Source of the DNA: Laetmonice hystrix
Taxonomy: Eukaryota
DNA: 64,000 nt
Reading direction: 5' to 3'
Assembly (NCBI GenBank): GCA_965235115.1
Contig: OZ249436.1
Coordinates: 36,458,001-36,522,000 of the forward strand
Positions within the stretch are counted from its first letter, which is position 1. Every line of letters starts with the position of its first letter. The position numbers were made by a program, and so were the translations under genes. Positions 20,546 through 54,900 of this stretch are shown here, piece by piece. The notes beneath the pieces were generated by a model, which had not been told where the DNA came from, did no database searches, and worked only from the letters and a program-made list of their open reading frames with translations.

Positions 20546-21024
20546 ACCAGTCGGTGCAGGGGTCAGCCAGTATTGTCCGATCACCAGTCGGATCCAGTAG
20601 TGACAACAGCATCCAGGATCACGACGACGACGAGGACGACGAGGACCTTGACGTAGGCAGCACCCCTGAGCCCGAGGACCTGTCCAGCGGCACCCAGCGG
20701 AGTCACATCCCCGGCAACCCCGACCACACTCCACCGGGGCCTAACTTCAGCCTGCACGGTGACGACTCGCGGTCCGAGGAGGCGGAGGCCGGCGGACCGT
20801 GTGGAGTCTCCCCGGGCGGCGAGCGGGACGACGCCGGCGACGGTTCCGAGAGCGGGGACGGAGAGGCTGGCGGTAAGCCTCGCAAGATCCGCCGGAGCCG
20901 GACCACATTCACCACCTACCAGCTACACCAGCTAGAACGGGCCTTTGAGAAAACCCAGTATCCCGACGTGTTCACTCGTGAGGAACTTGCCCTCCGTCTT
21001 GACCTGAGCGAAGCGCGTGTACAG
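20546..21024 (+). CDS. hbn: homeobrain, coding exon 2 (acidic stretch and most of the paired-class homeodomain)
   Basis: Acceptor tttctctcttacag ends at 20545; encodes [74 protein letters not shown] and RLDLSEARV are Hbn-type rather than Rx-type. GTAAGC donor at 21025 is the typical PRD-class intron position Q|VWF. Confidence 0.93.
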
Positions 21025-22157: not shown

Positions 22158-22560
22158 GATTTATTTCCTAACTCATGACATGTTCATGATAAACATAGTA
22201 TTATAGGCAGAGATACTTGTGGTGACAGTTCAAGCTTAAAGTGACATTTTCACTAGCAGAGGCCTTCGATAATACAGGTAGATAAGTTATAGGATTTATT
22301 TCGTAACTCATGACATGTTCATGATAAACATAGTATTATAGGAAGAGATACTTGTGGTGACAATTCAAGCTTAAAGTGACTTTTTCACTAGCAGAGGCCT
22401 TCGATAATAAAGGTAGATAAGTTATAGGATTTATTTCGTAACTCATGACATGTTCATGATAAACATAGTATTATAGGAAGAGATACTTGTGGTGACAATT
22501 CAAGCTTAAAGTGACTTTTTCATTAGCAGAAGCCTTCGATAATACAGCTAGATAAGTTAT
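22158..22560. repeat. Tandem triplication of a 135-bp unit in hbn intron 2
   Basis: gatttatttc(c/g)taactcatgacatg starts at 22158, 22293 and 22428. Confidence 0.92.
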
Positions 22561-25500
22561 CATTGTTTACGCCTAATTATTATAATTAATTAGTCAGGAA
22601 TCGATATAACGCACAGGGAGAGTCCACATATCTTTGTTTGCTCCAGTGTAAAGGGATACATTTTTTTAATTGTATAGATCCACGTGAATGGCTATATATT
22701 ATGTTATGTGTGCAGTTTAATTATTCTGGACAGTATTATAATAATTAATTATCCTTGTTACCGGCCTGTTTCTGAATGAACCCGTCCCCGGCTACATGTT
22801 GCAGTATATAGACTATATGGGGGTCTGATAGAGTTAATTAGCCACTATGTATGCGGTCCACTTAATGAGGCGCACGTACTTACATACACGTGATAAAGGT
22901 TCTAACAATACCCTCACTCCGGGGTCCTAACTTACCACCTCAGGTGCAAGTCAATTGTTCTTTAGGATGCAGCTTAATCAACTAGAAGGTGACACACAAA
23001 CCTAACAGGGTTTTCACCAACACCCCTGCTGTTTACTTATTAATTTACATTGTTTTCTCTACTAAGTAAACACCAATACAGTTTGCGAATAGCTGTAATT
23101 ACGAGCCCCGAAAGGATTGCCATTAGCTGTTATAATACGTTTTATCTTGAGTGGGTGCACACAAACAAAACTTTAAGCCGTTCGACAGATGGGAAGGAAG
23201 TCGGGGTTAATTCCTCTAGTTCCACTTGTATAGGTTTCACAGTTTTAATGTCGATCGTTGGCCACAGCTGTGGATGGGACCCCAACACCGCCACGATGTA
23301 AAGGGACCTCGATTCCCCACGGAACACAACAATGACCCATCGGAGGTGTCCGAAACATCTGCGTACTTGGGTCACAGCGGGTGGCGCAGGGCGCGCCCTC
23401 TGAAGTAACTCTGTGAGGAGGGCAGCCTCGAAAACCTGCCCAATTCTTCCCTTTATTACGTTCTCTAATTCCCAAACAACCCCGCATGATTGGCCTTCCG
23501 CGATTGTCGTGTGGAAAACATGCAAACACTTCCACGGCAGTAGTTAGGATGCAAGAGCGTTAGCAAGTAAAGAGGGAAGTCCCTTCAGATGGCTCCTAAT
23601 TTAGCCTGAGTATCTCTTCACTGTGGCCAGTTTAGTGGGCTTTGTGTCACACAGAATAGAATTACCTCTATACCAACGTCACTAATTCGACCTCAGAGCA
23701 TATCGACATATGCGAGAGTGCTTGAGGTTGGGTGTATGTGTCGGCTAGAAGAATGTGACTTGAATAGCGGGAGGCTCCCTTGGCGGGTCGTCCGTTCGGT
23801 ATCTGTATTCCATCCCGCGCATCTATACAGACCATGTGCCCTCATCGGCAACTGTTCGTCTGCACTTCAAAGTCCCTTGAAAGTCTCTTTCCTCATCAAG
23901 TATGGGACCTACACTTGGGTGAAATACACTAGGCCTATATAACACAGTATTTGGGATAAATGACTGACGCTCGGATGACCTCTCAAACCCTGGCATGCAA
24001 AGTGAGTCTAATAAACCCCTACTCTCACCCTCATGTCAGTCAATAGGCCAATACAATGAATACAACTGCACGCGGCCTCTGGGATTAAACCACTAAAGAC
24101 TGCATCTCCTATGTTATATGTGCAGTCATTGACGCCGCTTGAATGAACCCAAGATATCAAAGTAGGCCCACCTCATGAGAATGAGGGGAGGTTCTCGGGT
24201 TAAACTTTACACCGTATATTATTTCTTAGTGAGGAATAACTATAGAACAAGGTTAGTCCGTAATGCCACCTTTCATGCAATATTTGATTAAAAACGCTTT
24301 ATTCGGTAATGAATCCGTATATTCAAATATAGAATCGCTCACGGATCAAGTAACATATCTGTCTTATTATTATATTACATGTTGAACAAATATAGCTATA
24401 GGGGCCTACTGTTCATTTATATGACAAAGTCACCGTATGTACGCATGTTCACGCATGTATACATATAGACATTTCCTTATCTTAGCCCTCAGTGCCTTTA
24501 CTGGCACCGATCTAACGATATGCAGGCAGGTATAAGACGCCCGGGGGAAAAGACCTCTTTTTTTCTTAAGTAAGATATAGGTCTATCGCCTTAAGTCTTG
24601 ATTAGAGGCCCGAAGGACTTGTATCCCGTTTATATACTATAAATAGCCCACATCAGGGTGGTCTATAACGATAGACAGTGGAAACAAGAGAGAGTGCTGT
24701 GCGGGAAAACCAGGCATTATATTAATCTATTATAATAATGTCACACCAAAACATCTGCTGTCTGTATGCGGGACCTTCACCATATACCGTTAATTACAGC
24801 AGAGGGGCGCGCATACCTGACCTCTCGGCCCGTTCACGTTTTGTACCGAATGAAACAAAGTGCACACGAGCTTCCAGATCTGTGCACGCAGTAACTTTCA
24901 GACCAAGCCCAAGCTGCTCGTTTCCATATGCACGGAGCCCATGTAGTACCTTTATTTTCAGTATTGTTCATCACCAATGTCCGGCAAGCTTTGTCTGCCT
25001 GCCCAATGACCCATCTGCCACGAACAATAAGATTTAGCAGTCAATTCACCGACGATTGTTCTCGACCAGGCTTGGATCCGATAGGGAGGAGGTCGGTGGG
25101 CAGCGCTTCGTGTCCAGATGAAACCGAGGCTGTTGAGGCCAGCCTCGTTTGCATGACCTCCGTGGGTGTGCGGTGGAATGGCGCGACTCGAGTATTGTGC
25201 GCTCCTCAACGAAAGCGAACACAATCAAGGCAATTTGATATCCGTACAATGTCGGGATTCGTGCAAGATCTGGGCAGCAGGCGACGGCCTCAACTCAGAC
25301 TTAGGGATATTTATCCGACGGGTACTAAGAACTTATTGTGATGGGGGAGAAACTGCCTTCTGCCAGTCCTTTTCTTTGCAGCATGCCCTCTGCGAAAACC
25401 GCCTCGCCCTTAGGGGAATATTTCTGGAGAGGTCAGGTTTGCTGTAGACCGGTTTTATGATGTGCGACCTTCTATCAAGCTGTTATGGGATTCATAATAG

Positions 25501-25764
25501 TCTGTTTCAAACAATTTTCACACATACAAAACACAATCTCGCTCAAGAATCCACATTACCCCGCGCCAGAGCCAGACCAATTGCAGTGACCTCAAAAACA
25601 TCTTTATAAATCTTGTGCCTTTCCTTGCTCACCCACTGGCTTGGCCGGTCGGCCGATTTTGGCATTTCACCGTTATGATTGGCCGTAAAATTTTAAAAAA
25701 TCACGAATACATGATTTGACATACTCGAATATACCTATCTATCTCTACATTAACATACGCCTAC

Positions 25765-26024
25765 TTTAAATCAGCCAGTCCGGGTAGGGGGTAGTGACAA
25801 CAAGGTAGATCTACCTTTAAATCAGCCAATCCGGGTAGGGGGTAGTGACAACAAGATAGATCTACCTTTAAATCAGCCAATCCGGGTAGGGGGTAGTGAC
25901 AACAAGATAGATCTACCTTTAAATCAGCCAATCCGGGTAGGGGGTAGTGACAACAAGATAGATCTACCTTTAAATCAGCCAATCCGGGTAGGGGGTAGTG
26001 ACAACAAGGTAGATCTACCTTTAA
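25765..26024. repeat. Minisatellite, 51-bp unit x5
   Basis: tttaaatcagccaatccgggtagggggtagtgacaacaagatagatctacc repeated. Confidence 0.95.
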
Positions 26025-29000
26025 AGATAGGCCTAGTTCGATGCCTTCTTGATTTTTGTCCCCCACGGCCAACCATACCAAACCGACCGACCGGCCGGCC
26101 GGGCCATGCAGGAACGGTTATTTATAGGCCGATATTACTTATCTAATAGTGCTTATCTTGTCAGTATTATCATTAAGGGTTATATAATAACTATCCCGCC
26201 TATATATTATTCGGCGTACATAAAATAGAGACAAAGACGTAACTTTAGTAACACTGGCATCAATTAGGCGACGAGAGTTTTGTTTTCACTCAATTTGAGG
26301 AAGAGTTCCCGCCTCCATCATTGTACATTGTTTGGCCACAATACGAGATTGTTGGCTGGAACCCGTATATCTCTACTCCGATCAGATACGTTAATGGTAT
26401 AATGCTACGCCTCATTCAGTCAACTTAGCCCCACTTGCGCAACGGGCTTCAAGGCAAACACTTGAAGCTCCTCTGCTATTTAGCCATTGAGGATAGACAC
26501 AATGCGGGTATATTAAAAGGACCGCCAATAATCACCTGCCTATGAAGAACACCTGCATACCCATAATCAGACTTATTTTTTACAACAGTTTTTAAAGGTA
26601 TGTTGGAGCACGGGTGGAATATACTAATATATTCTTCAGATACATGGGTATATGCATGGGTATATGCAGAAATACAAACAGAGGGGATAAACAATTTGTC
26701 CCGGCGTAGACCTACATCCTGCGTAGGAATATAGGGCGCACAACCTGAGAGAGGGGTGGGGTGGGGGAGGGGGTACAGGAGGGGTGTTCTTGCATAAACA
26801 CATGCAGAATATCTTTAATAATGTTCGAAGTCTTGTAATATAGTCCGGCCAGTTATATGTCTTTTGTTTTATATCTAGTGTAAATCAGAGTGCACGTTTG
26901 GTTCATTGAAACATTTTAAACCGGAACAGTGTCAATCATTACAGGCAATAGTCGGGAAGGTCGTACAAATAGAAATGACGAGTGCGCCGTGATGGAATTG
27001 TTTCGGCTGATTTGTTGTTTGCGGCGCGCTGACTGCCATATTTGGGTTTCGTTATCGTTCGGGAAATGGTCTATCAACGTGGCTAATACGACACGAAAGC
27101 CGGCGTCTTTGACTGCGCTCGCTCCTCTATATTTGATAGAGTCCCATTATGTAGATTATATCTCATCATGCACAGTGAATTATTTTAACTTCATTCACTT
27201 CTGATCTGACTGATCAGTATTCATGGTAGTTGCTTTGTGTGCAAATTACTTCTATTCGCCTTTAGGTATTTCCATTGCCTTTTGCTACAGCCCGCCAACC
27301 TCACCTTCATTACAGTTTGTGTTGAAATTACTCGGTGTTTTTCTCTTCTACTTTCAAGGGAAGTATTTTGAGGTTAGCATACAGCTATCAATTACAGCTG
27401 TGTGTACATGGGATGTCTGGCGGGATGTACTGACTGGCTGCTCTGCGCACGCCACACGTGCATGCGCATGTGGTCGTGCGCACATATCTTCTCTCGGGCG
27501 ATTTCAAATCTTCAAATTTGAATTCTATCAACAGCCGGGGCTGTAGTAAATTGCAGGAATCATCTGTCGACAGTTTCTCCACGCTGCGCTGCGATTTTTC
27601 TCTCGGAGAAGTCAAGCCTGAAATGCAGTAATGTCGGTTCAAGTTTGTCAAATCACAAAAGGCCGCCGGGTTGCCGAAACTTCATTTGACGCCCATTCCA
27701 GCTGAACGAGTCGATGTGGGGGACGTCTTTTATTAGCGCTATAATTTACACATATTTGCGAACGATACCACGATAAATTGCACTTTAACTTGTTGTGATT
27801 ATGCAAACGCCATACTGTCAGCGCTCGCGGTCATTCAATTCCGACTCCAACCAGTCCGAAAGAAAACGGCTAATGAAGCGAAAGCTACAAACGATGTTAT
27901 ATTATGAGATGGCATTGACACAATTCGATGCCGCCTGTAGTTAGAAAATCAACTCGCAATGAAATTAATCCGAAAACAGCCCGATGTTACAGTGTTATGC
28001 TTGCACGGGCAATTTTATTGAATTCCCAATCATCTAGTTAGCGCACGTTCGATTACACATCGCCTAGGAGCCAATTGAGCTAAACGTTCATTGTCGCCAT
28101 TTGCGGCCTCCAATTGGTTAATATACACGCCAAATTAAAAGATTTTGCTCCGCTACAATGAGCACTATTTGCCATTGTCCTGACAAGGACCATAGACAGA
28201 AATACCAATTCATACGCTAATGAGCCTATTGCTCATGTGATGTCCAATTTGTCGATTTTTCGGAGCGTAAGTGGCATGTTTCACGTTCACACAACTGCTG
28301 AATTAGCTGCGAGCGATTTGGAGAGCCAGATCCATCGCTCGCTCGAGCTCATTAGCACCCAAAGCGACGGTCAAACCGCCAGAGAACTAATTGAATTCAT
28401 TGTCACCCCGTAACGATTGACTCGTACGCTAACTTAAAAGCGATCATTTTTGAAAATATTTGCGTTCAAATTCGGAGTAGTGAACCTCAATTAGACATCC
28501 TAATGCCTTTTATTACATTTGTAATTAACGAATTACTGGTGATGGTTGAATGCAACTGGCCAGTCAGCGAATCGATGAGACGATGAATAGGGCCATCAGT
28601 GGGGTTTGTGCACACGGCACCAACCCGCCGTTGCACAAGCATCCGAAGGCTGTAATCCGGCCCCCAATTTAATGGATTTAATAAAGAAATTAGAATATAG
28701 CTAAATCAGTGCGGCGAGAGGGTAGACGAGGGCAATTTACTAGCATTCAACTTGGTCTTCATCAGAGGGTGCGATCGATGCAAATTTGTATTCACTTCCC
28801 GAACAAAACGAGTCGAACTGCCACGAATCGTTCAATAAAGCCTCTTGTGTCTGTCCTTATTAATATTTGCTTCCTTGGTAATTCCGGCTATATACACGCT
28901 CGCAAATGAACGTGGATGAAATTACGGAAGGAAATTCAATTTAGTGTAGCTACGGTGGCGGCGATAATGGGGCTTTTCTAGGCTTCATTACATTACATTG

Positions 29001-30285
29001 ATGGCGATAGGGTGGGGTGGTGTTGGCTACCACGGCACAGCGCACGGCCCGCTCGAGGGAACAAGTCTGGCAGATGTATTCCGTCGTCTGCTGCCAGCAT
29101 CGAGGGGGGCCCGACAGGGTTGTTGGCGTCAAGCGCGCCTGTACCTCAGGGATTGCACCCTGCAAGCTGAATTAATCGCCGATTGCCTTTACGACGTTAG
29201 CGCCCGGGGTTAATTGTACATTGAGAGACTGGCAAGGACATGTGATAATCGCGCTCTAATTGATCAGATCTGGAGAAGTCTTCATTTTGTGGCGGCGTCG
29301 ACCATGATGTGGGGTGACTTGCTCTGCTGATGATGAGAGGCGCTGTATGGCCGCGACATGTCCACAGTTAAAGTCATGCTGAGGGCTGCCGTGCACCTGC
29401 ATATGTCAGCTGCAGACATGTGTGAATGAGGCAGGAGTTACGGACGCACGCCACATAGAAAATAGGTGTCGATTAATTATCGGCCCACTGTGTATCATTA
29501 GCACCGGAGGCTCCACACATAATTACCGGATTTGAGCCACGAAGTTTCTAAGCCCTTACAATGACAGACTTACAAACCATCAGGTAATAACAGTGAGAGA
29601 TCTAGCCTACGTATAGTAAGCCTCAGCCAGTGAGGCTCACGACCACTCAGTGTTAAAAATTTGTATGTCAGTGGCAGCGCAAATTCATGTACCGATCAAC
29701 TCACCGGCATCCTTTATCGGGGGCAACGTCTTCTTTTAGTTGTTTGACAAGACTAGTATTTTAAGGATAAAACATCAAATTCCGAAGTGCCGTACCGCTG
29801 CGGCTTCCGTGGCCTGTTTAACATAGCGGACGCGTCTGTTAGGCAGGGTACCAGGCTACTCCCTGACCCGGGAGGTCAAAATGGCCGCGATAGGCAGAGA
29901 GCGAAATTCGTCGATTCCAGACTTTGTGCTGCCCTTATTATGTCTCGTCGTGCTTTCCAAACTTGGAAATAAGTGAGATAAGTTACTTTAAGCGTGTTTA
30001 TTAATATTCAGTCCAGATATATGGGCAGGGGAGGGGTTTTCATGGTGGTTGGATGGTTTGACCGAACACACCAGGAACTTGCACTACGGGGCGTCCGTCT
30101 CTGTATACGGTAGTACAGAGACGGATACTCTGTCTATGAGAGATCTATATGTGAGAGGGCTTTCAAAGAATACTGACCATGCGCTAAAGTGTTACTTGAC
30201 CTTTACTATAGGCTAATAGGCAATGTGGACAAATTTTGTTTGTTGTACCATTGATGAAACGGTATTTTCTCTTCCTGTGTTATAG

Positions 30286-30858
30286 GTGTGGTTCCAGAAC
30301 CGGCGAGCCAAATGGAGAAAGAGAGAGAAAGCCATGGGTCGGGAGAGTCCATGCTTCATGCCGGGAGAGCAGCACCAGATGCTCCCTGAACTGCCGCCAA
30401 TGCTGAACCCGTTACCCATGGCCACAGGTCCCGACCCTTTGATGGCCGCCCGCATGGGCAATTTCCAAGGTATCAACCCACTTGTGGCGTTCCAACAAGG
30501 CGGCATCACCAGCCTAGCCGCTCACTATCTACAAAACAAGACGGCGTTTGGCGGACTTTTCGCTGGTTACATGTTTCCCCATCCGGGGGCGCCACTGGTT
30601 CCGCACGGTTTTCCCGGCATGCCTCCAACCAGTTCCACTTCCTGCATGTCTCCGCCCACACCCGAGAGTATAATGGCGTCTCGCGTCTTCTCGCACGGAC
30701 ACACCGACCATACACGTGCACACATGCATGAATCCGTCGACATGCGAAAGTCGAGCATTGACGCTTTGAGAATGAAAGCTCGTGAACATTCCGTATCTCT
30801 GGAGAGTGGACTTGGCAATTCGCAATGTTCTTCAAGAGATTCTCCCGTTAAATCCTAA
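30286..30858 (+). CDS. hbn: homeobrain, coding exon 3 (homeodomain helix 3 with Q50, Pro-rich region, OAR motif)
   Basis: Acceptor tttctcttcctgtgttatag; encodes VWFQNRRAKWRKREK and the OAR motif MRKSSIDALRMKAREH; TAA ends at 30858; joined CDS is 1266 nt = 421 aa. Confidence 0.93.
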   Translation: MWFQNRRAKWRKREKAMGRESPCFMPGEQHQMLPELPPMLNPLPMATGPDPLMAARMGNFQGINPLVAFQQGGITSLAAHYLQNKTAFGGLFAGYMFPHPGAPLVPHGFPGMPPTSSTSCMSPPTPESIMASRVFSHGHTDHTRAHMHESVDMRKSSIDALRMKAREHSVSLESGLGNSQCSSRDSPVKS

Positions 30859-34794: not shown

Positions 34795-37700
34795 GTTTAT
34801 TCTACGCGCTTGTATTATTTCTAATTTAAGGAAAATAACCAACAGTAAACCAGAATTGGCACCCCACTGAATGGGAAATAGAATGCGCATCTCATGGCCT
34901 ATAATAAAATAAAAGACACATCGGAAAATTATAGCCAGATAGATTCGATGTTTTTAGTCAGAATTCTAGATAAAGTTACACATTGAATGCATTTTCTTAG
35001 ACACATTCCCATCAACATGCTTTATGCCAGAACCCTCACATTTACCCAGTGATTAACCCTACTAGCACACTTGCTCTATCTATTCACGGACTTCGATCAT
35101 ATATTTGAACAAGTACGTGTAACTATTCTTCCTTGAAAAGAACCTCAAATAACGTTTTGAAATATATTCAATATACTAATAATATGTAAAGATACCCAAT
35201 TCTGTTGTGCTGACTTTAAAGAAAGATGACATAAAAGTATGAAATAAGAACCTTTATTTCTCATAATCATACATCGTGTTAGTAAACGTATCGAAAGTCC
35301 TCTCTTACCGAGTACATGTAACCTTTAATTTGACAAATATGACATACAAAAATATATATGTGTGCCAAACCGCAAAAAGGTCCGTACGAAAACTGTATAT
35401 ACAAATACCAGGGCATCATACATGATTTCAATCTCGTTACAAAATTCGATCATAGCTTGGGGTCCGTCCAATTTAGACACGTCTTCCCTTACCAGAAATT
35501 CTTGTCAAGTCTTTGGTCTGTATGTCGACATACATGAATGCTGCTGCTGTCTATCACTCAGTCACATCGTCAATATATACACACACTTAAGCACTTTCTA
35601 TTTGATGGCAATATTCCATCAAGTAACAAGAATCAGGGAATGATTTATTTCATTGGTAAACAGAAGAATGACAAAAGAATCGGAATGAGACAATAAAATC
35701 TTGGAATGTGAGCGTCACTTTCCGTATAGTTGAACGTGCTGACAAAATCAACATGAACGCTATAATCAAAAAACACAAATCTATAAACTAGGGCTACCCC
35801 TACAACAGTTACTGTCAACGTTAATAGAAACAAGACATAAAGTGCAATAAATCATCTAGTGTGAAAAAAAAGATCGCAGTCTATGAATGTTTTCAGAACA
35901 TAATGCAGTATATATAATGGAATGTTAAACACTTTTTTCACATATTATGCAAAAAAAAAAGGAAAAACTTACACAAAGAAAACACCACGTGTCATTAAAT
36001 TAGGCTGTCACCTCCTGGCCAGTCTGGAAAGCCAAGTTGGCCTACTGATGGCAGTACAATGTTCTGCTCGCAGCATTCCCTCGATTGCACCACCACCTCA
36101 TTTCTAGCCATCTACGTCAATATAACAAATTTACAAGATGCCCCTTTACCTTTTAGAAATCACCAAAACGGTAGTGTCATAACAATACAAAAAAAATCGA
36201 AACCTGACTCACCATCCTAAGATCATTTTTACATATTATCTCGTTTTTAAAATTAATAAATGACCTCAAACAAATCCATAGTTTTCTGAATAAAAGCTTA
36301 ACAATGTGTGCATCTACAATTTAGAAATACAAACAGAAGTTTTCTTTCTATTTTTTTGAACCATAACGTTCCTTCAATGTAAAGTTTGAAGGAACAACCA
36401 CACTCTTGAGCATGCATGTACAGTGTACAGTGTTACATCTATAGAGTATAGTACAGTCTACTGGTACGTACACTAAACTGCCTCTTCAAGCCTAAATTAC
36501 GGTGTCAGCCCTTTGCTTATGTTACGGCGACAAAATGCTTACTACACATCCAAGGCAACGACAGGAGTGTGCACAATCTGTAGACTATAATTCGATGTGG
36601 CACGTTTACTTTTGCAACTTCTATCTTCCTAATAAATTCAGCATCACTGACTAAACCCTCAATTCAGCATCACGTAAACTGTTAAGGCGACATCAACTCA
36701 CGGGTTTTAGGCACTTATTTCATACCTGTAAGTTTCAGGTTCAAAGTTTTTCTGAATCTTTTAAGATCTTCCAGATCTACCGGGTTTTATGGTATCTATC
36801 AGGCATGACAGAAAACCAATTAACGGAAAAGTAAAACATTATAAACTCTTGATAACCTGTTACGAGGCTACCAATACATCAATGTCGAGGTTTTTAACTC
36901 TTCCCTTTTTAACATGAAAGCCTGTATATATTCACCATGTCTGATTGTTCTAATACCATGTACGGCAAATGTCATCTTAGAAACGGCAAGGAAATTCAAA
37001 TAGTAAATCTGATATTTAATCTAGGTCAGGATTCTCTACCTATTTATTACTACCAAGGCACAATTAACAAACGGTATCAGTACTTATGTCATCAGGTCAC
37101 TGGTCAAGGCTCCTAATTTCACTTCACAACCACATGTCGTTTTTAAACAGACAGAAAACGCTTCAGAAAAATATTTCAGAGAAAAATAGATACAATATAT
37201 ATATATCAATATATAATACTTGGAAACGGAATGTTATGTATCACGGTGTAGAAAGATCAGTCTACAGAGTAAACCTTATTATAAAGCACTTTCATACTGT
37301 GAATGTGTCGGTTAAAGTATGGGTCCATCATATTCACTGTAACCATCACAACAGGTGCTGAGCTACCCATCTTTGCAATATTCCTTACAAGAGAAAATCT
37401 CAGAATGAAAGTCAGATGAGGTCAGACTGGCCCTTGCAATAGCATTTTAGAACCACCATTCTCATCAAACCAACGTCCCTGTCGTGCATAAGTTGGAATT
37501 GTCTCCCATTACAAATCTGTGAATGTTGTAAAAGTTAATAGGTTCGACGAAAGAAGTACTGCTTGAATGAGTTGCCATTATCCTATAGTACACATACATT
37601 CACTTCATCCATCATCTGTTAGTGATGCACATTTTTGTCTCTTTAGGGGGTTCTCTCTTTCGAACATCCCGTTTTTCAACAGCTGAATTAATATTTCAAA

Positions 37701-38045
37701 TATGAGTTTTTCAAACACTTTTACGTTGGATCAAAAAACGTGTTGTAAAGGCGACATTTTGGGCATATGTTTCATAGCAATAAAGTGCAAAATCTACAGA
37801 TTACATCTTCAACTCTAAAAACTTAACTAATACCACTGCCTTCAACATCTGATGACCAGTCTAATGCCATATCTCTTCATTTTAAATAACGGCAAAACAT
37901 GAATGGTCATTTCTCTGAGGAACACAAGTGGTGCAGCTATTGCTATGTACTGATGGAGAAAAAAATCTCTCTCTTCATCCCAGCTACCTTAAGGGAGTAT
38001 AGTGTACCTCAACTCGTTGTGTGCAGGCAGACATTATGGCGGGAG

Positions 38046-38846
38046 TCACTCAAACAGATGACTGACCACAGCGGAGGAGATGTTACTAATACTAACACCG
38101 TGGTCCTTGGTCATATGCTGCTGGTACTCGTTGAGTCTGTTGAAACCACGGCTACATTCCACACAGCGATACCGGTACTGACCCGTGTGCACGGATACAT
38201 GCTCCTTGAGGCTGCGTTTCGACATGAGTACTTTGTCGCAGAACTCGCACTTGTAGCCCCCGGGCCCCTGGTGTATGACGGTCATGTGCTCCTGGTAGTC
38301 GCTGCGGTCTCGGTAACGGTTGTGGCAGATCTCGCAAGTGTAACCCGATTTGTTCATGTGCGTATAGTGGATGTGGCGACGACAGTTCCACTTGTTGGAA
38401 TACACCTTGTCGCAGAGTTTACACTTGTAACCCATGGTTTTCTCTCCTCCTTGGAATCTCTCGATGAACTCTTCAGGTTTCTTGAAGTCATCATCATCGC
38501 TGTCGACGGTGAAGATCTCGATGCTGTCTTGGTTGCCGTTTTCAATAGAATAGCTGTAGAAGCCGTCCATGCTGTTCTCAATGCTGTGGTTATTCTCCTT
38601 GCTCTCTCCTAGGTCCGTGTTCTCTTTGTCCGGACATGAACTGGCTCCGTCACTGTCTGATGATGGAAGACTCTTCTTCTCCAGGCTGATCCTGCTGGCT
38701 TTGTTAGAAGGTTTGGGTGTGTCCTTAGTCGGCTTCTCCTGCAGAGAATCCCTCTTCATCTTTCCGGTGATGCTGTAAAGAGGGACCTTGAGAACCGGGC
38801 GATTTTTTATCTTCTCATCGTCCTCTGTGTCAGCATTCTTCTCATC
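38046..38846 (-). CDS. Alternative terminal exon B of the zinc-finger gene: four C2H2 fingers
   Basis: Acceptor tttttatatgtttcag in phase 0; fingers CKLC..HIHYTH, CEIC..HMTVIH, CEFC..HVSVH and CVEC..HMTKDH; stop at 38046; AT-rich 3' UTR with minus-strand AATAAA at 35253-35258. Confidence 0.88.
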   Translation of the reverse strand, partial: DEKNADTEDDEKIKNRPVLKVPLYSITGKMKRDSLQEKPTKDTPKPSNKASRISLEKKSLPSSDSDGASSCPDKENTDLGESKENNHSIENSMDGFYSYSIENGNQDSIEIFTVDSDDDDFKKPEEFIERFQGGEKTMGYKCKLCDKVYSNKWNCRRHIHYTHMNKSGYTCEICHNRYRDRSDYQEHMTVIHQGPGGYKCEFCDKVLMSKRSLKEHVSVHTGQYRYRCVECSRGFNRLNEYQQHMTKDHGVSISNISSAVVSHLFE

Positions 38847-39637
38847 CTGAAACATATAAAAATCAGGGTAGGATTCTTTAGATACTAATGATTGACAATC
38901 TCCCGCTTTCCTTCTGGCTTTCTGTTTTCTTCCGTTGCTTAATAATTCAAAGCTCTAATTAATTATATTGCCATGAATTTGAGGATTACTCTTAATACCA
39001 GTTCATTCCAGCCACTGCATTAATTAGCTTTAGACTACCAATGCATATGACATGAACTTAGTTGCTGCATACCTTTACATATTGAAGTATCGTATGGAAG
39101 CAACACCTAATAGTCGACAACTTACGTCACAGTGCCTCCTTTGGTATTGAAACGGTGTTTTGGTATTTGGCAGAGATTTATCATACATTGTCACCAAGTC
39201 AGGAAGTGCAACGGCTAAATATTCTAAAACCCTTTTTTTCTTTCTGCCCATTTCGCCCCATCCAATAACAAAAATGGGGTCCCTATTCTTCAAAATGACA
39301 GTTTTATCAGAATGCATTGATCAACAGTTCCTTCATAATTATCCTAATTGGATACATTTAGAGTGTGTAGTTTAAAATACTTCAAAATCATATGATATCA
39401 CCAAGTGAAAAACCTAAGAAAAATGTACCTCCATAGCCATATAGGTCTTACTCAAATTGGAGAAAAATATAGTTTGATATTTTTATTATCACTGTAAGAA
39501 CACTTATCAGTATAAACCAGTGCAATATTTTCCATCGTTCGTTTAATTTACCAGCAATACAGAGATCCCACACTAATTCACTGTAATTCATAGCTATTTC
39601 TATACTTTCTATCCTGAAATTTAAGGGCGCTGAAACT

Positions 39638-39856
39638 CAGGGCTTGACATTAGTCCTGGCCCAATGGCCCAAAATGTTTTTTTTCAACTTCATGGGCCAC
39701 TACGTTTGACAAAACACTGGCTGGATCAGGCCAGTAAGAAACCCAACCATTGGTTAATGTCTTTGATATTCCCGCAATTGTTGAGCCAGGGCCAGTAACT
39801 TTCCCTGTCTACTGGCCCTGTACCTGGTACTTGAAACTGTTTAATGTCAAGCCTTG
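39638..39856. mobile_element. MITE with CAGGGCTTGACATTA termini
   Basis: cagggcttgacatta ... taatgtcaagccttg; no clear TSD. Confidence 0.6.
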
Positions 39857-41101
39857 GGACTCTATATATAAATTCAGAGGCAGCCACAGTCCTGACAACT
39901 TGGTGCGTTCAACTATTTCTATGGTACAATTCACACAATTTGTTTCCTGCACACTGTGTAACATTACCTGTAGTGTCAGCATTGATCTAAAATTATCCAC
40001 TATTATAAAACCGTAGACTATTATCTGATTGAAACTTGTGTATCATTCCCACAGTAGTCACACCAAGTGCCATGCAAGTGTCGACACAAGCAATTAGCGC
40101 CCCCTACAGATAAAATCACTTGGCCTAAGATACTCAGCTCTTTGCAACTGACGATTGGTGTACATGTACATGAAGATAGCTATTTCTGTAGAAATAAATA
40201 AATCCCTGATTATAATATAATATCTCTACCTGCTACCTTGGCTGGTAGGTCTTACTGATTGCAATGATTATGGGAGACCTACGTGCTACAAACTGTGGTG
40301 CCTTTTGGAGGTCAGAGTTTCTCACCCCCACCCACCTCAATTGCTCAAAGCTGCCTTGGATTTCAATATAAAACCGAAGACCTACCTATTGGAATTGGTA
40401 AAATCTGCAGAACTGGTAAACAAATTACGCCAATGGACCAGATGGGCGGCTCATCACATTAACACTGCCCCCTCATAAAATACAAGCTTCTCAACAGAAA
40501 CACAGTCCATCACAGACCGTCCATCACACATAGGGACTCAAATGTACGGTACCAATCGACTGAACCTAAGACACGGTAGCTCATGTTCTTGTTAGATTGT
40601 AACAGTAAAATGCTATCAGGGAATCCATCTAAAGCTCTGGGATCATCCAAGATATATTGTAGGAAATGTACCACTAGTTTAACATTTGTGGGGCATCACA
40701 ATGCAAAAATCAGCCACACAGGGTACACCACTGACCATCACCAGTTACGAGACCCACCTTTGCTACTGCCAAAGTCTTTTATAATATAAGTTATGATTTA
40801 AATCTAGTTAAAGGCTATCTGCAAGTTGATTATCTATTTGTCATGTAGAGAGGCACCTTTTCGATGAGTCCTACACATGTCAGAACATTGAAACCTTAGG
40901 ACTGTTACGAAGTCGGCAAGGCATCTCCTTGGCGGCTTTATTCAGTGCTGCCCTCATGTGCTGAACTTGAAAAGTTAAACTTAAAAATAGCGCCCCAAAC
41001 TGAACATAGATGGCAGCACCAGAGTAGTACCCTTTCATTTATCAGGTCTATCTCTTGCCACTACACTGACAAAATTTGGCCATCTGACATGCGATAACAT
41101 A

Positions 41102-41691
41102 CCGGTGTAATGATTTCAAGTTCCCCCCCTCATTCAAGTCCCCCCCCCCCCGGGAACTTAAAAACGTTTTCAAATTCCTCCCCCGGGAACTTGAAAACCT
41201 TTTCAAATTCCCTCCCGCGATTTAACTTTCCCTCCCCCAGGGACTTAAAAACGTTTTACGTTTATAAATAAAATATAGGCCTACCTTATTATTTTTCGAC
41301 TAATTTTAAATGTTGATCCTTTTTGCCCTTCTTACTTCACCACATCTAGGGGGTAGGTCCTAGGCCTAGATATCTTTTGCCAGCTTGTTTCTCTCCATTC
41401 ATTTTACTGACCGTTCATTTTCACCCTAACCTAACCCTAACCCTAGCCCTAGCCCTAACCCTTTCCCAAGGGAATGCGTATTAACGTTTTTCACGTTCTC
41501 GTGGGGGAAATTGAAAACATTTTTAGAATCCTAGGGGGGAATTTGAAAATGGGGGGATGAATCTGAAAACGATTTTCAAATTCCTCCCCGGGAATTTGAA
41601 AACGATTTCAAATTCCTGGGAGGAAATTTGAAAACGTTTTCAAATTCCCGGGGGCGAATTCAGGAGGGGGAATTTCAAAACGTTACACCGG
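41102..41691. mobile_element. Non-autonomous DNA element with CCGGTGTAA termini, subterminal repeats and an internal (CCCTAA)n tract
   Basis: ccggtgtaa / ttacaccgg; repeated ttttcaaattcc and gggaa(c/t)ttgaaaac motifs in both arms; cctaaccctaaccctagccctagccctaaccc at about 41424-41462. Confidence 0.7.
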
Positions 41692-43328
41692 GATCACATT
41701 GGCCGTGTCACTGTATCATACATGTATACCTTAATATGTATATCAACTGTATCAGTAACCCATTTGTGCCTCAACAGCACATTTCCAATTTTGAATCAAT
41801 CATCAATCTGTAACTGGCCAGAAGAGATAAATTTATAATCGTATCCACCATTCTTTGACTGCCTCTGTTGTACAAGTTAAACCATTCTCTATGATTCTGA
41901 GGCTGCCCAACAAATTTTGCAAAAGGCAGTCACACATAGCTTGCTCACGCTCACTAAAAACTTTTGGCCAGAATGATCCCTGGACATGCTAAAATTGCAG
42001 TGTCTTTTGCAGAAATTTCATCCATGTAGATGAAGATCATACAGACTGTAATACATTTAAAGCAATTTCTGTACATTTGGATTGTGCTCCCTATGTTCCT
42101 AAGTCTCCAGTGGCTGACAAGTTATAAGTTTAGTGCATGCAAACTTGTACCATGACAGAAATTATTTCTTATTTTCGAATCTTACTTTACAGTAGGGTAC
42201 CTAGCAAATATGAAGTTTTTTACACTTTGCTGGACAAACACCTCATAGCTTGAATCCAAAATGTTTAACTTCACAAACTAACAATGATTCCTTGGAGTGG
42301 CCTAGTTTTTAAGGCCTCAATGACAGGTTTGGAGAACAGGGAGATATTATTCGTGAACACCAACCTGGTTTTTGTCCTGTCATTACTCCTAGTACAGAGA
42401 TATTAATGGCGATTTCCAGTCCCACTCACTGAATGTCCTAATAGTACATGTGTACGTGTAGGCCTATACAATACTAGGGCAAAATTTAGACTGCTCTTTC
42501 TAATCACCACATATGGTTATCATGCAAGACCCTCTCTTACTGGCAGAGTCTCTCTTACACTTACAGATCTATGTGCTGTGTGATATATCTTTCACAGCTC
42601 TCTCACAACCTGACCTATTGGTAACTGCCACATTGCATATATGGATACTTCCAATGTTCACACAATATCACCTTTGGCATGCCAACTTGCTGTTCGATCC
42701 CTCATTGAGTACAAACAAGTGAAGAAAGTCAAGAAATGCCTCCAAGGAGACAAACAAACTGAAACGTTAAGCCATATGTTAATAAATATGATATAAGGAA
42801 CAGGCCCAGCGACTCCAGGAGAGAACCAGAGACTTCCCAACTTGAGGACCTGGAGAAGCTTCTGCCTGAAGGATGTCAACGGACGAGGTGTTGACTGCAG
42901 ATAGACAAGAAAGACAACAGCTCATCTATCAGATATGCACCCAAAATACTAATGGAATGAAGAGTTTACTCACAATCTGGAACAGCATGCTTTTTAAATG
43001 TTTTTGAACGCAGAGAGAAATGTATTTAGGTCATTGAAATATGGAATTTTTGAGATGACAGAGACACATTAAAACGCTTGTAAAAAACTAATCTGTTTTA
43101 CCCTTATTTATTACACTCTGATCCCCTTTTCTCTAGATTTTTTTTCTACAAACTTGCTTGAATTTTTAGAATGATGAGCTGAAAACGCATGCAGAAACTT
43201 GGCCAAAGCATGCAGGAACCTGACCAAAAGTCGTGACCATGGGAGAAAACAAGCCTAGAAGAAGACAGGTGACCTACCCTATAGGCCCAAGACTTGAGAG
43301 AGAAGTGCTGAACGCTACCTGTCTGGCA

Positions 43329-43619
43329 TTAAGTAGTGTCAGACTGGGGAGATGCAGACACCATCTGAGTGTATGAGGACAGAGTAGCCACAGGTGCCTT
43401 TGACTGGGTCTGTGCCCGTAAGTCAGAGGCTAACCGAGAGGTAGTGCCCGTTTGTTGAGGCTTGTGGTAGTGGAAGCGGTGTACCCGCAGTGAGTTGGAA
43501 GTTTTGAACTGCTTGCCGCACAAGTGGCACTGGCGTGGAGTGCCGCAGCGCTCGACATGGCGAGTCCAGCCCCCGAGATGTTGCATACGCCGACCACAAA
43601 GTGGACAAACATACGCCCC
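43329..43619 (-). CDS. Alternative terminal exon A of the zinc-finger gene: CCHC + C2H2 finger pair
   Basis: Acceptor tgtctgtgtctggaccag in phase 0; GAYVCPLCGRRMQHLGGWTRHVERCGTPRQCHLCGKQFKTSNSLRVHRFHYH; stop at 43329; minus-strand AATAAA at 43107-43112. Confidence 0.75.
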   Translation of the reverse strand, partial: GAYVCPLCGRRMQHLGGWTRHVERCGTPRQCHLCGKQFKTSNSLRVHRFHYHKPQQTGTTSRLASDLRAQTQSKAPVATLSSYTQMVSASPQSDTT

Positions 43620-44603
43620 CTGGTCCAGACACAGACACAACACCCCTGTCAGTTTGTACAAGTATGTTAGTTGTTTATGAACACATCTTGTCAACTGATG
43701 CCCTCCACAGTGTATCCATTATATGTACACGAATTACTTAAACATTAATATAAAAACATTAAAGTTTCTCTGGATCAAAGGTCATCTCATGTCACTATAT
43801 CTTTTTAAAGTATCTTGCTCAGTCAGACACTCAGACAGTGCAAAAGAAAGTAATGACAATGTTCACTAAACAATGTTCAGTAAATGAAAACTGACAGACT
43901 GAACAGAAGACTGATACGTGAGCACAACTGCCTACACAAAATTAAAGTCACACAGATCTATGGCCAAAGATTCCAAGGGAGAGCCCCTTTAAGTTAATCC
44001 ATATAATTCTCATACAGCTACAGCTTAACTGTGCCTGTGGAATACGACAGCCTCTAGTAGGTTGCATCCAGCAAACGAAAAACATTCACTTAATAAAGCT
44101 CTATTTGATATACCGGGTACTTTATCAACAGGGTATCTTTGATCAAACAATATAACTCTAAAATCAAATTTCATATCCCTTGCCCTTCAAACCCTTGCCC
44201 TTCAAAACACTGTGACAATCCTTGAGTGTTAAAAAAAACGAGTTTTTACAGAACATTTAATCTCCAACAGGGCTCAAAATTTTCCCATGCTTGCAGATAA
44301 TTGATTCCATCATTACGTTAAAAAACACCTCAGAGAAGGAATCAAACTGCTCATACTCATGGACTGATGGGCTAATTACATACCATCATATAATCCAATT
44401 TTGACAAAATTACAACCAAAATGTGATTCCAACATTGGCATTCTTGCAAAGATGAAGATTTAAAAAGATAAACTGTGACTTTGAACAGCGATTATAGTTT
44501 TCCATTATATACTTGAAAACCTCAAGAGTTTTGTAGACAACACATTACTGTCATACCGAGCTTACACCTATTTTTTGAGCTCGGCTGTGTCAGTGCTGCC
44601 GCC

Positions 44604-44794
44604 CTCCATACCTAGATCTAAGGAAATCCCATTAGGGGTCACCTCAGGTTGACCTCTGGATTCAGCCAATCAGCGAGTTGCCTACGAAATCTTCAGTGTG
44701 TGCTCGTAGGCATTTTCAACGGCACACTTGAATCTGGGTCAAAGGGCAGCCTGAGGTGACCCCATACGGGATGCCGTTAGATCCTAGTATGGAG
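44604..44794. mobile_element. Degenerate fold-back MITE
   Basis: ctccatac..gatctaa..atccc..ggggtcacctcagg mirrored by cctgaggtgacccc..gggat..ttagatc..gtatggag; inner tgcctacga/tcgtaggca. Confidence 0.65.
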
Positions 44795-45245
44795 CGCATG
44801 CGAAATAACTAAGACCTAATTTTAATTAGATTGTCTTTGACCCTAGTTCCTGCAAAGTAAATCCTTCCTCCCCACATATTTCCTCATTTGAGTAAGTCTA
44901 AGTAGCTCTGAGTTTCACAGAAGCAGACTACCTTCAGATCACATTAATTATTAGCCCAGAGTTGGTGACACTGATGTTACTACCTCTATGGACAGCTGTA
45001 AGTAGCAACTAAAAATAACAGATGCAGGACACACCACTGTACATGGTTCAACAGCACAGAAAACATGAAAAAACACATGTGCATTACTGCTTCATTGTGA
45101 AGTCCATTAAGTATTTGTACCTTTTCTATTCAACTGTTCCAGAATATTGATTCATATATTATCAAGTTGTCCATTATTATCAATACTTAATTATAACTTT
45201 ACAATGCAGAAGGAGAATGTTCAAATACAATGTATGTCAACTCAC

Positions 45246-46139
45246 CTGAGGTGGTGGTGAAAGTAATGATGCTGGAGAAGAAGACTGTAATGCTGCTGGG
45301 GTTTGGGTGTTGGCCAGGCTGGCCTGCCATGCAGAGCATCCTGGCAGAGGGCTGTAGCCGGTGAGAAGTCTAGACAGAGATGGGGCTGCTGCTGCTGTCG
45401 CTGACACACGGAGGTCATAAGCAACATCTTCTGGCTGCTCCTTTTCAGATTTGACTGGATACAGACGTAAAGCTGCTTCTCCTGTGTCAACTACATTGAC
45501 TTCACATTCAAGGTCTTGCTCATGTTTTATGAAAAGGGTCTCATGGGTGGAATTCTGAGGAGTTGGACTTGAGTTGAGGCGCTTTGGGTTCGAGTTCTGT
45601 GGAGAGCCGTTGCATCTTTTTCGTTTTTGAGGGGTTATATCTCTGTGGGGTTCATCCTTTAGGGTTGATTGGGATGTATGGCAGGGTGGGGACCCCTGGC
45701 TTATGGGCGTCCCTTCTCTGCTGAATGCATTCCGTTTGCTCTCTAGACTTGCTGTGGAGCCAACCTCACAGTTTTGGAAATCTCCCAGGCCATTTGAGGA
45801 ATCAGCTATAGGAGACAAGGTCCACATATCAGTTGGATAGTCCTCAGGCTCCTCGACCATGACAACTTCTCTGTGACGTGGAGTGCTCTTCCGGTGTCGA
45901 GACTTCCGTACGGCATCTTTTACAAGAGGCTTATCTTCTTTGCGAGGAACCTCTGGCTGTTTCTCTTTAAGAATTGTCTCCTTTATACTCACTAAAAATA
46001 TGTCATCACTGTCAATCGTTATACCCAAGAGTCCCTCGATGGTGAATTCTGTCTTGTAGTTGAGACCACTTTTACACAGCACTGAGATGGCCTCGGTCAG
46101 TAGTGCCCTGACGCGTTCCTGGTCTGATTTAACTACCAT
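45246..46139 (-). CDS. Zinc-finger transcription factor, common coding exon (uncharacterised N-terminal domain plus low-complexity linker, 298 codons)
   Basis: Acceptor ttttttcaattaccag (exon starts 46187); ATG at 46139; N-terminus VVKSDQERVRALLTEAISVLCKSGLNYKTEFTIEGLLGITIDSDDIFLVSIKETI; basic KRKR and SUMO-type LKDE/IKHE/VKSE motifs; strong CAG|GTGAGT phase-0 donor at 45245. Confidence 0.85.
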
Positions 46140-46904
46140 TGTGACATAGGTTCCCGCAGCATCTTATCATGGCAGTTCCCTCACTCTCTGGTAATTGAAA
46201 AAATGGAATACATTAGAACATTTTGATTAGCACCATCATGTTACACCTGGTAACCACAGAAATTCACACTGGTGTACTCTTTGCTAGATGTAACAACAAT
46301 TTGCTAATTTCTATCAATTTAAATATGTACACCTAATATTGCATAAAATCAGACTTATTCCAGGAGAATCAACATTGCAGTCCCAGAATATAATATAAGT
46401 TTTATGCAACCAGAAGATTAGAACTATCTTGACAACCAGGGCCCTATGTTACTACACTAGACACTCAAGCAATGCCACTTTTGACAACTTTTTCCCCACA
46501 TTTTGCACACTTCTGTGAAAAAACAATTAATAAATCAGAAAACATACTAAACATTTTTCAAGAGGGCAGGCTAAAACCTCAATTCCATTTTACTCTGCCT
46601 GATATTTTAATTTTCCATATTACAAATAGGGCCTTCTTCAAAAATGCTGGTTCCACACCTGTTGTGATTTGATACTAAATGTGATATTCATTCAAAGTCC
46701 AAACTTTTCAAAGCTTTCTGTTCCTACAGCCCTACTAAACTTTTCTGTTTTGAAGTGAAGCAAGTCCACTATTATTCCTTTTTTTTTTATAAATCAAAGA
46801 CTACATTTTAGTGTAAAAAAAAGGAGGAGGGGGGAGTATTTGATTCATTAACATTTCAAAAATCAAATATAAAAATTGCTCCTCAAACAAACGCCCATGA
46901 ATAG

Positions 46905-47910: not shown

Positions 47911-47990
47911 CTGAAACCACGACAATGTTCTTCCTCTTTCACCGCCCGTTTTAGTACCGGAAGTGAGTAAATGGCGACCCGGATGTAGGT
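47911..47990 (-). promoter_or_regulatory. Putative promoter and non-coding first exon of the zinc-finger gene
   Basis: ETS motifs CCGGAAGT (47957-47964) and CCGGATGT, and a YY1-like AAATGGCG, clustered just upstream of a CAG|GTAATC donor at 47910 on -. Confidence 0.55.
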
Positions 47991-51906: not shown

Positions 51907-54900
51907 CTGAAAAAACAAAATAGCTTATTAGAAATTTCCTTTACTGAAATATTTAAACCATAGATATCGCTTCACATGTATATAGCTGTTTAAGTTATAT
52001 TATCAGTGACGTAGCCAGGAATTAATAAGAGGGGGGGGGGGGCGCAAATTTTTTAAGGAAAATCTGACAAGCCAAAAAAAAAAGGTCTTTAACAATGCTG
52101 ACAAGCCAAAAAAAGAAAAAAGGTCTTCAACAATGCTGACAAGCAAAAAAAAGCCAAACGGGGGGGGGGGGGGGTACGCCGGGTACGCCCTATGCTATGG
52201 TGGCTACGTCACTGATTATGATGTTACCATTTATGGGGGGGGGGGTGATAAAAAAGTAACGTTTTATTAAAGACGTGACGTGGTTTAGGACTTGCCTGGA
52301 CAGCACGCAACAGGTGGGTTCGATATGTGCTCACCACGTCCCTGTGACGACGCTCAACCTCCTGAAAAACACACTGACATGTTAAACGTTGGCTTCAAAC
52401 ACAACAATAACATTGTTGGAAATGGTATTCACGAACGGGTTGTCATGGCCATGGGTACCTTAGCTGAGATACGCGATGATTATTTATTTAACTTATCAAG
52501 AGTCACGCTCCATTACACAACCCTAGAGCTATGTTTATGTTTATTGCAGTCTTTATCCCGATTTGTTCATTTTACACTTTATGACGACTGTATGACTATG
52601 TATGAATCTCGAACCTCAAGTTTTTCTTGCAGTGTGAGTATTTGTTGCGTTGCTAACGCCGTCTGTTCTTCGTTCAGTTCATGCTGGGAACTGTCCACCA
52701 ACTTGGCCACCTGGTGGCGGAGGTGGTCGTTATCCTCCTCTAACTCCTTCATCCTCAGTTCCAGACTGCGCTTCTTGAGCGACTTGCCGAAGTCGAGCGG
52801 TTCGCTGTCCCCACCAGGCTCACCGTCATTCCCGTTTAGAGTGTTTCTCGGTGCACTCGTCAGTTGTGGACTCCTAGCCTGAACGCTCAAACTCTCAACC
52901 CTAACCATGTCGTCCACATTGCCATTATTATAACGCCTCTGCAGGTTCTCCACTTCTTCCATCAGTTTTTTGTTGTCCTCGGTCAAAGAAAGGATCTCTT
53001 CTTTAAGACTGTTCTCTGTGGACTTCTGTTCCGCTGTTCTCCCGTCGAGAATCGTCATGACCGTGGCGTTTCGCTCACTCTCCAAGCTTGCCTCAAGTTG
53101 TTTTACTTGGGCCTTCAGTTCAAAGTAATCGGGCGTGTTTTTCCCAGACTCCGACAGCTGCTCCTCAAGGATGGCGACCTGAGACTTGAGCTTCGTGTTT
53201 TCCTCTTCTAGACCCTCATACCTTTGCTTTAATAGCAACTCACTATTAAACAATGCCATTTCTGCTTGATGATTTTTCAAGTGTAGTTGGGTTTTCTCAT
53301 CTTCCAGCAGATCCTTTTGTCTCTGTAATAGTGTAATCTCCTCTGTATTTTGCTTTGCTACCATAGCAACAGCTGCTAACTCATTGTTTCTCAGCTCCGA
53401 TGTTGCCAGCTGTTCCTGTAACGCATCACGTTCTGCCTCCAGACCGTTCATTCGATCTGACATTAATTCTGATGCCGAGATTTCTTTCTCGAAATGAAAG
53501 ACCGTCTCCTGTAAACTGGCGTTGTCGCTTTTCAGTTTTTTATTGAGTTTTTCTAAGTCACTGAGTTGTTCAGCAAAATTATTATTAACTTCTGTCGACA
53601 AACCACTTGTCTGCTGTGAGAGTTTGTCCTTGAGTTGCATATTGTCGTCCTGTAGCCACCTGATCTCTTGTTCAAGGACACTGACTTGTTCAGCGTGAGC
53701 AGCCCGCTCCACCGTTGGATCAGATTGTGTCTGCATGAGGTTCTGGAACTGTTCCATGCTGTTCTTGAGAACCTCGCTCTCCTGCTGCAGGGTCTCGTAG
53801 TCCTGCCTTAATTGAGCATCTCTGGCAGACTGCTGCATCAGTTCCATGATGGTCTCTTGTTGCTGGGATATTGTGTTTTTGAGGTGCGAAATCTGGGACT
53901 TCAATTCGGAAATATCAGCAGGTTCCGAGGGACTATGAAGGTCAAACTTCTGTTTCGCCAACGTCTGTTTGAGGGCTTCCACTTCTGATTTTAACCTAGA
54001 GTTTTCTTCATTTTGTACATTTAATCTTGTTTTCTCCAAATCTTTCTGGGCCAATGAATCCTTTACACTCCTTTCTATCTCAGCTACCTTAGATTTGAGC
54101 GTCCGGTTATCACTTTTCAGGTCATTGTTCTCTTGCTGGAGAAGCATCGTTAACTGAGCCATTGCCTTTTGGTCGGATTCCGCGTTCTCCTTGTTTCCGA
54201 CTATAAGTTCTTCGTTCTCTTGTCTTAGTTTTTCATTTTCCTGCTGCAGTTCTGTGTTAAATTCTGCCAATGATTGCAGCCCCTGGACCTGACTGTCAAT
54301 CTCAACGAACTCTGCGTTTAACCTGTCGTTCTCAGCTTTCAGAGACTGATTTTCAGTCTGCAAAATTTCAAGTTCTGCTGCCAACATGCGTTTCTCTTCA
54401 AGAATCTGTTGCTGACCGGGTTCATTGGTTGAACTCATGGCGGCTGGGTTATCGATAAGGGACTGAAGTCGCTGGAGCTCACTCTCCACATGTGTTTTCT
54501 TATGTGAAAGTTCGGACACCTTCACCTCCATGTTGTCCTTAGCCATGGCCAGCTGCGTCTTCTGTTCTATGGCACTTGTCAACTGGAACATAACCATGAC
54601 AATTGCAGACTACAAATTGAGTTGTCAATCACAACATATATATGTTGCAAATTTAATCATGACCAACATATGACCAACATAGCCTTGTATGTCTTCTGCT
54701 GTCTGTATCAACGAGAAGCATAGATCGACTCTGGCACCAGACTATTCTGAACTCTCTCCAAGACGGTTTGCCAAATTTAACTGTTGGGTTCATTTGCTTA
54801 GTGAATCATTAAACCCTAACTTGGGAGTGGGTGTAATCTTTATTTCCCACCCAGGGTACAGAATTTCCCATAACACGACTTTTGACTGGCTATCATTGAT

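Follow-up and report, generated by a model that had tools for sequence, protein, structure and literature searches.

The lola gene, which belongs to the Tramtrack group of BTB factors, gives rise to 20 isoforms, 17 of them with different C2H2 zinc-finger ends, and mod(mdg4) has more than 30 isoforms ending mostly in FLYWCH domains (both as given in PMC11426971). The isoforms of mod(mdg4) are trans-spliced from independent promoters, according to PMC13490949. Tramtrack-group BTB factors are, by PMC11426971, confined to arthropods, none having been found in its search of Annelida and Mollusca. Here we analyze a gene on the minus strand of a 64,000-nucleotide (nt) stretch of the Laetmonice hystrix genome (contig OZ249436.1, positions 36,458,001–36,522,000; this whole stretch is called the window, and positions are counted within it), in which one shared exon is very probably joined to alternative last exons chosen per transcript. 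The gene works like lola and mod(mdg4) and is not a member of their group, because a BTB domain is absent from it.

With lola it has in common a constant N-terminal part and alternative 3' exons that carry one to a few zinc fingers. The constant part is a BTB domain there and a helix–hairpin domain of 56 residues (hereafter the N-domain) here, and the 20 isoforms of lola are exceeded by arrays of at least 85 and of 54 exons in this one genome, which holds at least 20 such multi-exon genes. The likeness to mod(mdg4) lies in a single constant part, dozens of variable 3' exons and ends other than C2H2; the ends found here, in contrast, are of C2H2, GATA, basic-helix, helix-turn-helix (HTH)-like and Rep-like types, and the modules all lie on the sense strand. 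No FLYWCH domain was found among 20 candidate modules scanned. With respect to tramtrack, broad and fruitless, both scaffold and phylum differ. In genomic sequence, 20 of 38 paralogs share with the window gene the alternative-3'-exon anatomy typical of the Tramtrack group; a BTB domain with the TTK motif was not found.

The common exon of the window gene (45246–46187, minus strand) opens after an acceptor ending in TTACCAG at 46187 and consists of a 48-nt leader, an ATG at 46139 and 298 codons, i.e. 894 nt of stop-free reading down to 45246, where it meets the phase-0 donor CAG/GTGAGT, the best donor across the common frame (8.5 bits). Genome and database matches and a structure model place the N-domain at 45972–46139 (minus strand). 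The leader contains three out-of-frame ATGs (46170–46129, minus strand); from the first, a reading frame of 13 codons runs across the main start codon, and this might restrict translation. Upstream, the sequence at 47911–47990 (minus strand) suggests a promoter together with an untranslated first exon whose donor reads CAG/GTAATC, with motifs that we presume to be YY1-like and ETS-like.

Terminal exon A (43329–43619, minus strand) encodes 96 residues and a stop, with a C2HC and a C2H2 finger, a pair that resembles the lola/broad type. It passes the Pfam zf-C2H2 model with 26.7 bits (cut-off 25.2) and is followed by an AATAAA at 43112 (43107–43112, minus strand), the candidate poly(A) signal of isoform A. 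The coding part of terminal exon B (38046–38846, minus strand) comprises 266 residues and a stop, with four C2H2 fingers (50.9 bits against the same cut-off), and AATAAA occurs downstream of it at 37048, 35649 and 35258. The predicted joined proteins have 394 (common plus A) and 564 (common plus B) residues and, judging from finger numbers and recognition residues, would differ in DNA specificity. The original prediction had described a common exon with an intact frame and two finger exons, each with its own acceptor, stop and downstream AATAAA; coordinates and product lengths hold on re-analysis.

A six-frame scan of the window confined finger-like motifs to A and B, save one atypical pattern match at +60645, and no third domain-coding exon was found between A and B in the window sequence or by acceptor scan. 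Strong acceptors at 44995, 43254, 42894, 41807, 41615, 40404 and 40185 open finger-less frames of 1–78 codons; the one at 41807 opens three codons only, and its product would be finger-less. Among the 501 AG dinucleotides between the donor and position 38000, a model trained on paralog acceptors ranks the acceptor of exon B first and that of exon A tenth. A repeat with terminal inverted repeats, resembling a miniature inverted-repeat transposable element, is inserted between A and B (41102–41692, unstranded); with about 40 scored copies of 84–95% identity across many contigs of the genome, it is probably outside the exon system.

A genome search with the first 56 residues encoded by the common exon gave 38 matches, of which 31 fall on contig C1, and a 39th copy was reached with another query. 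The window and 10–80 kb downstream of 37 paralogs (38 genes altogether) were scanned for modules; the lengths being unequal, the counts are lower bounds. A finger profile built from the family loci was applied with a cut of 8 bits (0 of 87 opposite-strand pattern matches reached 7), and a second profile served for a Rep-like module of about 220 residues described below. This search yielded 267 separate stop-ended modules (231 finger and 36 Rep-like) behind 25 of the 38 genes, 20 of which have at least two. These results support the two alternative exons predicted for the window gene, and the system proves far larger than had been supposed: a single gene has at least 85 modules, and types other than fingers occur. 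Array sizes are at least 85 for L031, 54 for L022, 27 for L026, 22 for L012, 16 for L027 and 14 for L003. The L031 array (G000:C1:29172071-29251770) has its finger exons within 78 kb behind one common exon, and a further one starts at the edge of the scanned sequence. Two paralogs at G000:C1:29327424 (plus strand) and 29427022 (minus strand) converge 100 kb apart with 22 and 54 modules between them, each on its own strand, and several further paralogs form convergent or divergent pairs. All 267 modules share the strand of their common exon, and opposite-strand modules in the extended loci fall, by coordinates, within the arrays of converging paralogs.

The reading phase of these modules is strongly biased. 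Scored with a generic acceptor matrix that had no training on these sequences, 250 of 267 modules (214 of 231 finger and 36 of 36 Rep-like) have their best acceptor upstream of the domain in phase 0. For the first 159 finger modules the figure is 146, or 138 once upstream TAG stops are left out; the controls for this first set, at about one third, were 381 of 1,227 for frames without fingers and 72 of 192 for windows of coding sequence. At the other side of the junction, the strongest donor in the final 45 codons of the common reading frame has phase 0 in 29 of 35 genes versus 50 of 139 control windows; the restriction to 45 codons was chosen post hoc, the count over the entire frame having been 21 of 35. 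A usable in-frame donor (at least 3 bits) follows the domain in only 1 of 267 modules, so the modules are last exons and not chain links. The last finger is followed by the stop after a median of 8 codons, with several modules stopping 0–2 codons after the last histidine, and methionine is absent before the first cysteine in 39 of 159 finger frames. Median module spacing in the largest arrays is 617–714 nt.

The finger modules are under purifying selection: the proportion of non-synonymous differences (pN) is below that of synonymous differences (pS) in 35 of 35 unsaturated pairs (out of 168), with a pooled ratio of non-synonymous to synonymous rates (dN/dS) of 0.27. Recognition-residue signatures are all distinct (85 of 85 modules in L031 and 54 of 54 in L022), and 173 of 213 modules have their nearest neighbour in their own gene. 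Few copies are broken, one extra match with a stop being found beside 218 intact modules in six arrays.

Exons A and B both appear to be old. The top three matches of exon A among the 231 finger modules sit behind L003 and L001, the paralogs nearest to the window gene in an N-domain tree of low resolution (2 of its 35 branches are starred), and the best match of exon B is the single module of paralog L009 (50% identity over 110 residues). In three comparisons of A and B with paralog homologues, synonymous sites are saturated (pS 0.85–1.04) at pN values of 0.32–0.38; for exon A against the L003 and L001 homologues, pS is 0.85–1.04 and pN 0.37–0.38, with 43–47% of the finger-region residues retained. 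Conservation of exon A in the face of saturated synonymous sites makes a dead remnant unlikely and points to long purifying selection.

Transcript evidence comes from X4, one of four runs of one sample, none of which is recorded as RNA; it was taken as probable RNA by its small size and exon-biased cover. Its contigs cover 35276–38236 (depth 65), 38338–38809 and 45361–45890, and the contig end at 35276 falls about 20 nt short of the AATAAA at 35258. They support transcription of the common exon and of exon B, the latter with a 3' untranslated region (UTR) of 2.8 kb (35253–38045, minus strand) ending near that signal. X4 depth is zero in the bins 42139–44406, which include exon A; this is a gap in one contig set and was not used as evidence. 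Use of the donor can be followed in related proteins: P0272 and P0273 (Logan) diverge from the read-through P0015 precisely at the phase-0 donor, into a basic-helix exon, and the Lamellibrachia gene model P0073 diverges from the read-through P0051 at a like donor, into two fingers. Judged from the sequences, these pairs show donor use, not alternative use.

The N-domain was compared with known domains at several levels. Its profile recovered 1,892 database cluster representatives, and the only named ones belong to two annelids, Lamellibrachia satsuma and Ridgeia piscesae; in the relatives P0016–P0019, P0135 and P0146 two N-domains stand in tandem. No related loci were found in metagenome contigs. 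The predicted structure (predicted local distance difference test, pLDDT, 89) consists of a helix (residues 4–25) and a β hairpin (32–42/46–56). The domain has no family match in Pfam or among PDB sequences, and fold searches (Foldseek; VIA-align, best Z 4.0; ESM Atlas, 0.76) gave no standout match, which is not proof of a new fold; the MADS-box dimer core shows a weak topological likeness (Z 3.5). As originally predicted, it is not a BTB domain: no BTB structure matches, and BTB models match neither the common exon nor any of the 38 N-domains at E up to 1. A BTB domain is, moreover, about twice the size. Pfam models of ZAD, KRAB and SCAN type likewise match none of the 38, and a single cysteine is invariant in the N-domain alignment, where a ZAD carries four. 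From its shape, its position and analogy, the N-domain is probably a dimerisation module. The lack of detectable homology to BTB, rather than phylogeny, suggests an independent origin. No description of the family was found in titles and abstract openings, a survey whose coverage does not extend to subscription papers, and the available parts of two annelid genome papers (PMC4085046, PMC12637686) do not mention it; their supplements may list it. A check of the name 'Lzf' led to nothing relevant.

Fingers are not the only ends. Among paralogs that lack finger arrays, a phase-0 exon at L018:7296-7460 (minus strand) encodes a GATA finger (Pfam E 7e-14), one at L033:1279-2433 (plus strand) an HTH-like domain with a weak match below the cut-off, and two, at L007:4764-5045 (minus strand) and L014:5579-5794 (plus strand), encode basic helices recognized by eye. 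Unnamed phase-0 frames behind common exons at L002:5483-6145 (plus strand), L013:7892-8596 (minus strand) and L006:1112-1942 (plus strand) may be further end types. An unnamed domain of 215–230 residues, here called the 220-residue or Rep-like module, occurs as a terminal exon in 56 genome copies, e.g. L050:6872-7552 (plus strand). By coordinates, every one of the 56 follows an N-domain gene on the same strand at a distance of no more than 51 kb; ten such genes are involved (L003/L040, L013/L049, L012/L060/L076, L014/L050, L011/L047, L016, L017, L019, L021 and L024), 17 copies each behind L003 and L013; finger exons and this module are mixed in L003, L011, L012 and L016. Behind paralog L002, at a distance of 11 kb, a type B DNA polymerase frame (L039:1433-4432, plus strand; Pfam DNA_pol_B_2) probably belongs to a Polinton/Maverick-like element.

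The structure model of the 220-residue module (pLDDT 88.5) ranks SIRV1 ORF119 at the top (2x3g; Z 8.4, root-mean-square deviation 2.9, 112 aligned residues), followed by Helitron transposase (7lcc, 6.4), parvovirus NS1 (3wrn, 6.3) and circovirus Rep (7kii, 6.1), with generic ferredoxin-like folds at 5.5–6.2 (S6 and ACT at 5.5–6.1) overlapping the lower of these Rep/HUH values. The likeness to HUH/Rep domains is thus one of predicted fold and comes without a sequence match: nothing was found in Pfam or among PDB sequences, ESM Atlas matches stayed below 0.9, a search of a viral library gave unnamed top rows (E 2e-4), and no relatives were found among proteins of 442–2000 residues, the length range searched. 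As to the His-hydrophobic-His motif, no alignment column has histidine in at least 6 of 15 rows, so the module is probably not a nuclease. It further differs from HUH/Rep domains in being a host exon and not a mobile gene. There is, on the predicted fold, about an even chance that it is a nuclease-dead Rep-like DNA-binding module.

Several observations weigh against alternative last exons as described above. The acceptor of exon A is weak (1.4 bits with the generic and 2.9 with the trained matrix). X4 also covers 39501–41100 (unstranded), unique sequence within the A–B interval; this cover, which stops some 15 nt short of the AATAAA at 39487, may represent a retained intron, a third end that lacks fingers or a pre-mRNA of B with a start of its own. 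No RNA junction of the window gene or its paralogs is present among the 15 of 87 joints listed (repeat joints, from three DNA-like runs). Fingers are present in only 3 of 243 database relatives of the N-domain, and no pair of database proteins has two spliced ends on one common exon (20 clusters, one spliced end each). AATAAA occurs in 125 of 242 inter-module intervals versus 103 on the opposite strand; this absence of clear poly(A) enrichment tells against a simple one-signal-per-exon picture. Thirteen of the 38 genes have no finger or Rep-like module within 10–20 kb downstream; in three of these (L023, L036 and L037) the N-domain and fingers share one uninterrupted first-exon frame, and they are possibly retrocopies or intron-loss forms. 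Finally, dN/dS of the 220-residue module is 0.69, a value resting on 4 close pairs of 24.

These points have to be set against other ways of reading the locus. The same products could arise partly by trans-splicing, the distal modules being transcribed from internal promoters as acceptor pre-mRNAs and then linked to a common exon on a different transcript. There is a precedent in mod(mdg4), with mixed cis and trans joining in lola (PMC13490949); arrays reach 73 kb, AATAAA is missing from about half of the inter-module intervals, and the unique sequence under X4 directly upstream of B could be an outron. We nevertheless consider this unlikely: 267 of 267 modules lie on the strand of the common exon, cis-splicing is sufficient, and a retained intron fits the X4 cover equally well. 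It is still less likely that the family system is real and the window gene uses B only, A being minor or decaying. Such a reading would account for the tenth rank of the A acceptor and for the sole probable RNA run showing B with its long UTR, but exon A is intact and keeps the finger-region residues mentioned above despite saturated synonymous sites, and its homologue in L001 has an equally weak acceptor (0.6 bits). Use of both A and B in the window gene is likely in our judgement.

Readings that abandon the shared exon or the single choice fare worse. Tandem C2H2 clusters are common in animals, methionine precedes the first finger in 120 of 159 frames, and exon B has an in-frame methionine at codon 30, all as would be expected if the modules were independent single-exon zinc-finger genes lying in tandem behind N-domain genes. 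Such genes would hardly share phase-0 acceptors in 250 of 267 cases behind common exons that end in phase-0 donors; the module spacing leaves little room for promoters, and the Rep-like module is absent from the rest of the genome. We regard this as very improbable. Slightly more remote again is the chaining of modules, as constitutive or cassette exons, into one long multi-finger protein: the two spaced fingers after the common part of P0073 could be two chained modules, yet two-finger modules of this type exist as single frames in L012, only one of 267 modules has a usable exit donor, and several stop 0–2 codons past the last histidine.

Returning to the choice among last exons, the sequence shows the exon layout, the bias toward phase 0, the lack of donors by which a module could be left again, and selection on the modules; on this we build the following proposal. 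A constant exon made of the N-domain and a low-complexity linker ends in a phase-0 donor, and one or many last exons follow, every one of them bringing its own phase-0 acceptor, DNA-binding module and stop. With one last exon used per transcript, proteins would have the same front and different DNA-reading ends; in the window gene the choice would be between A (two fingers) and B (four fingers). Each junction would be used, and splicing would proceed in cis with exon-specific 3' ends. With phase 0 uniform, an exon that arrives behind the donor by copying or capture would be usable at once as a new isoform, a rule that would account for both tandem growth by local duplication and mixed module types. 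The N-domain would dimerise so that isoforms and paralogs combine, and the modules would bind different DNA.

Besides this gene, the window contains a homeobox gene of the paired class (20515–30858, plus strand; Pfam), which carries an OAR motif, has a long intron within the homeodomain and is presumably aristaless/Alx-like. The upstream neighbour of the N-domain gene has a 676-residue coiled-coil frame (52579–54609, minus strand) without a Pfam family above the cut-off, and long minisatellite arrays at 4757–5813 and 7119–9965 give rise to repetitive open frames in several phases.

Taken at its widest, the proposal is that a lola-like system spanning the genome arose independently in annelids, and perhaps in further spiralians, with a new dimerisation domain as its base. 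It would comprise about 40 genes, several hundred last exons and more than 85 DNA-binding specificities in single genes; heterodimers would enlarge the repertoire further, and a Rep/HUH domain without catalytic activity would have been recruited from mobile elements as a new class of DNA-binding end. This we advance tentatively, as somewhat short of an even chance. If the family system is confirmed, it would be a convergent invention of the lola/mod(mdg4) type in animals other than arthropods, built on another domain and exceeding the fly genes in array size, and a Rep-like fold may have supplied a new class of host DNA-binding domain. Hundreds of transcription factors would be added to an annelid genome, unannotated since database entries nearly all read through into the intron, and standard gene annotation may miss much of the repertoire. 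The family would offer a testable case of the way in which a cell selects a single last exon out of 85, and the window gene, with its two exons, would be the simplest one to test.

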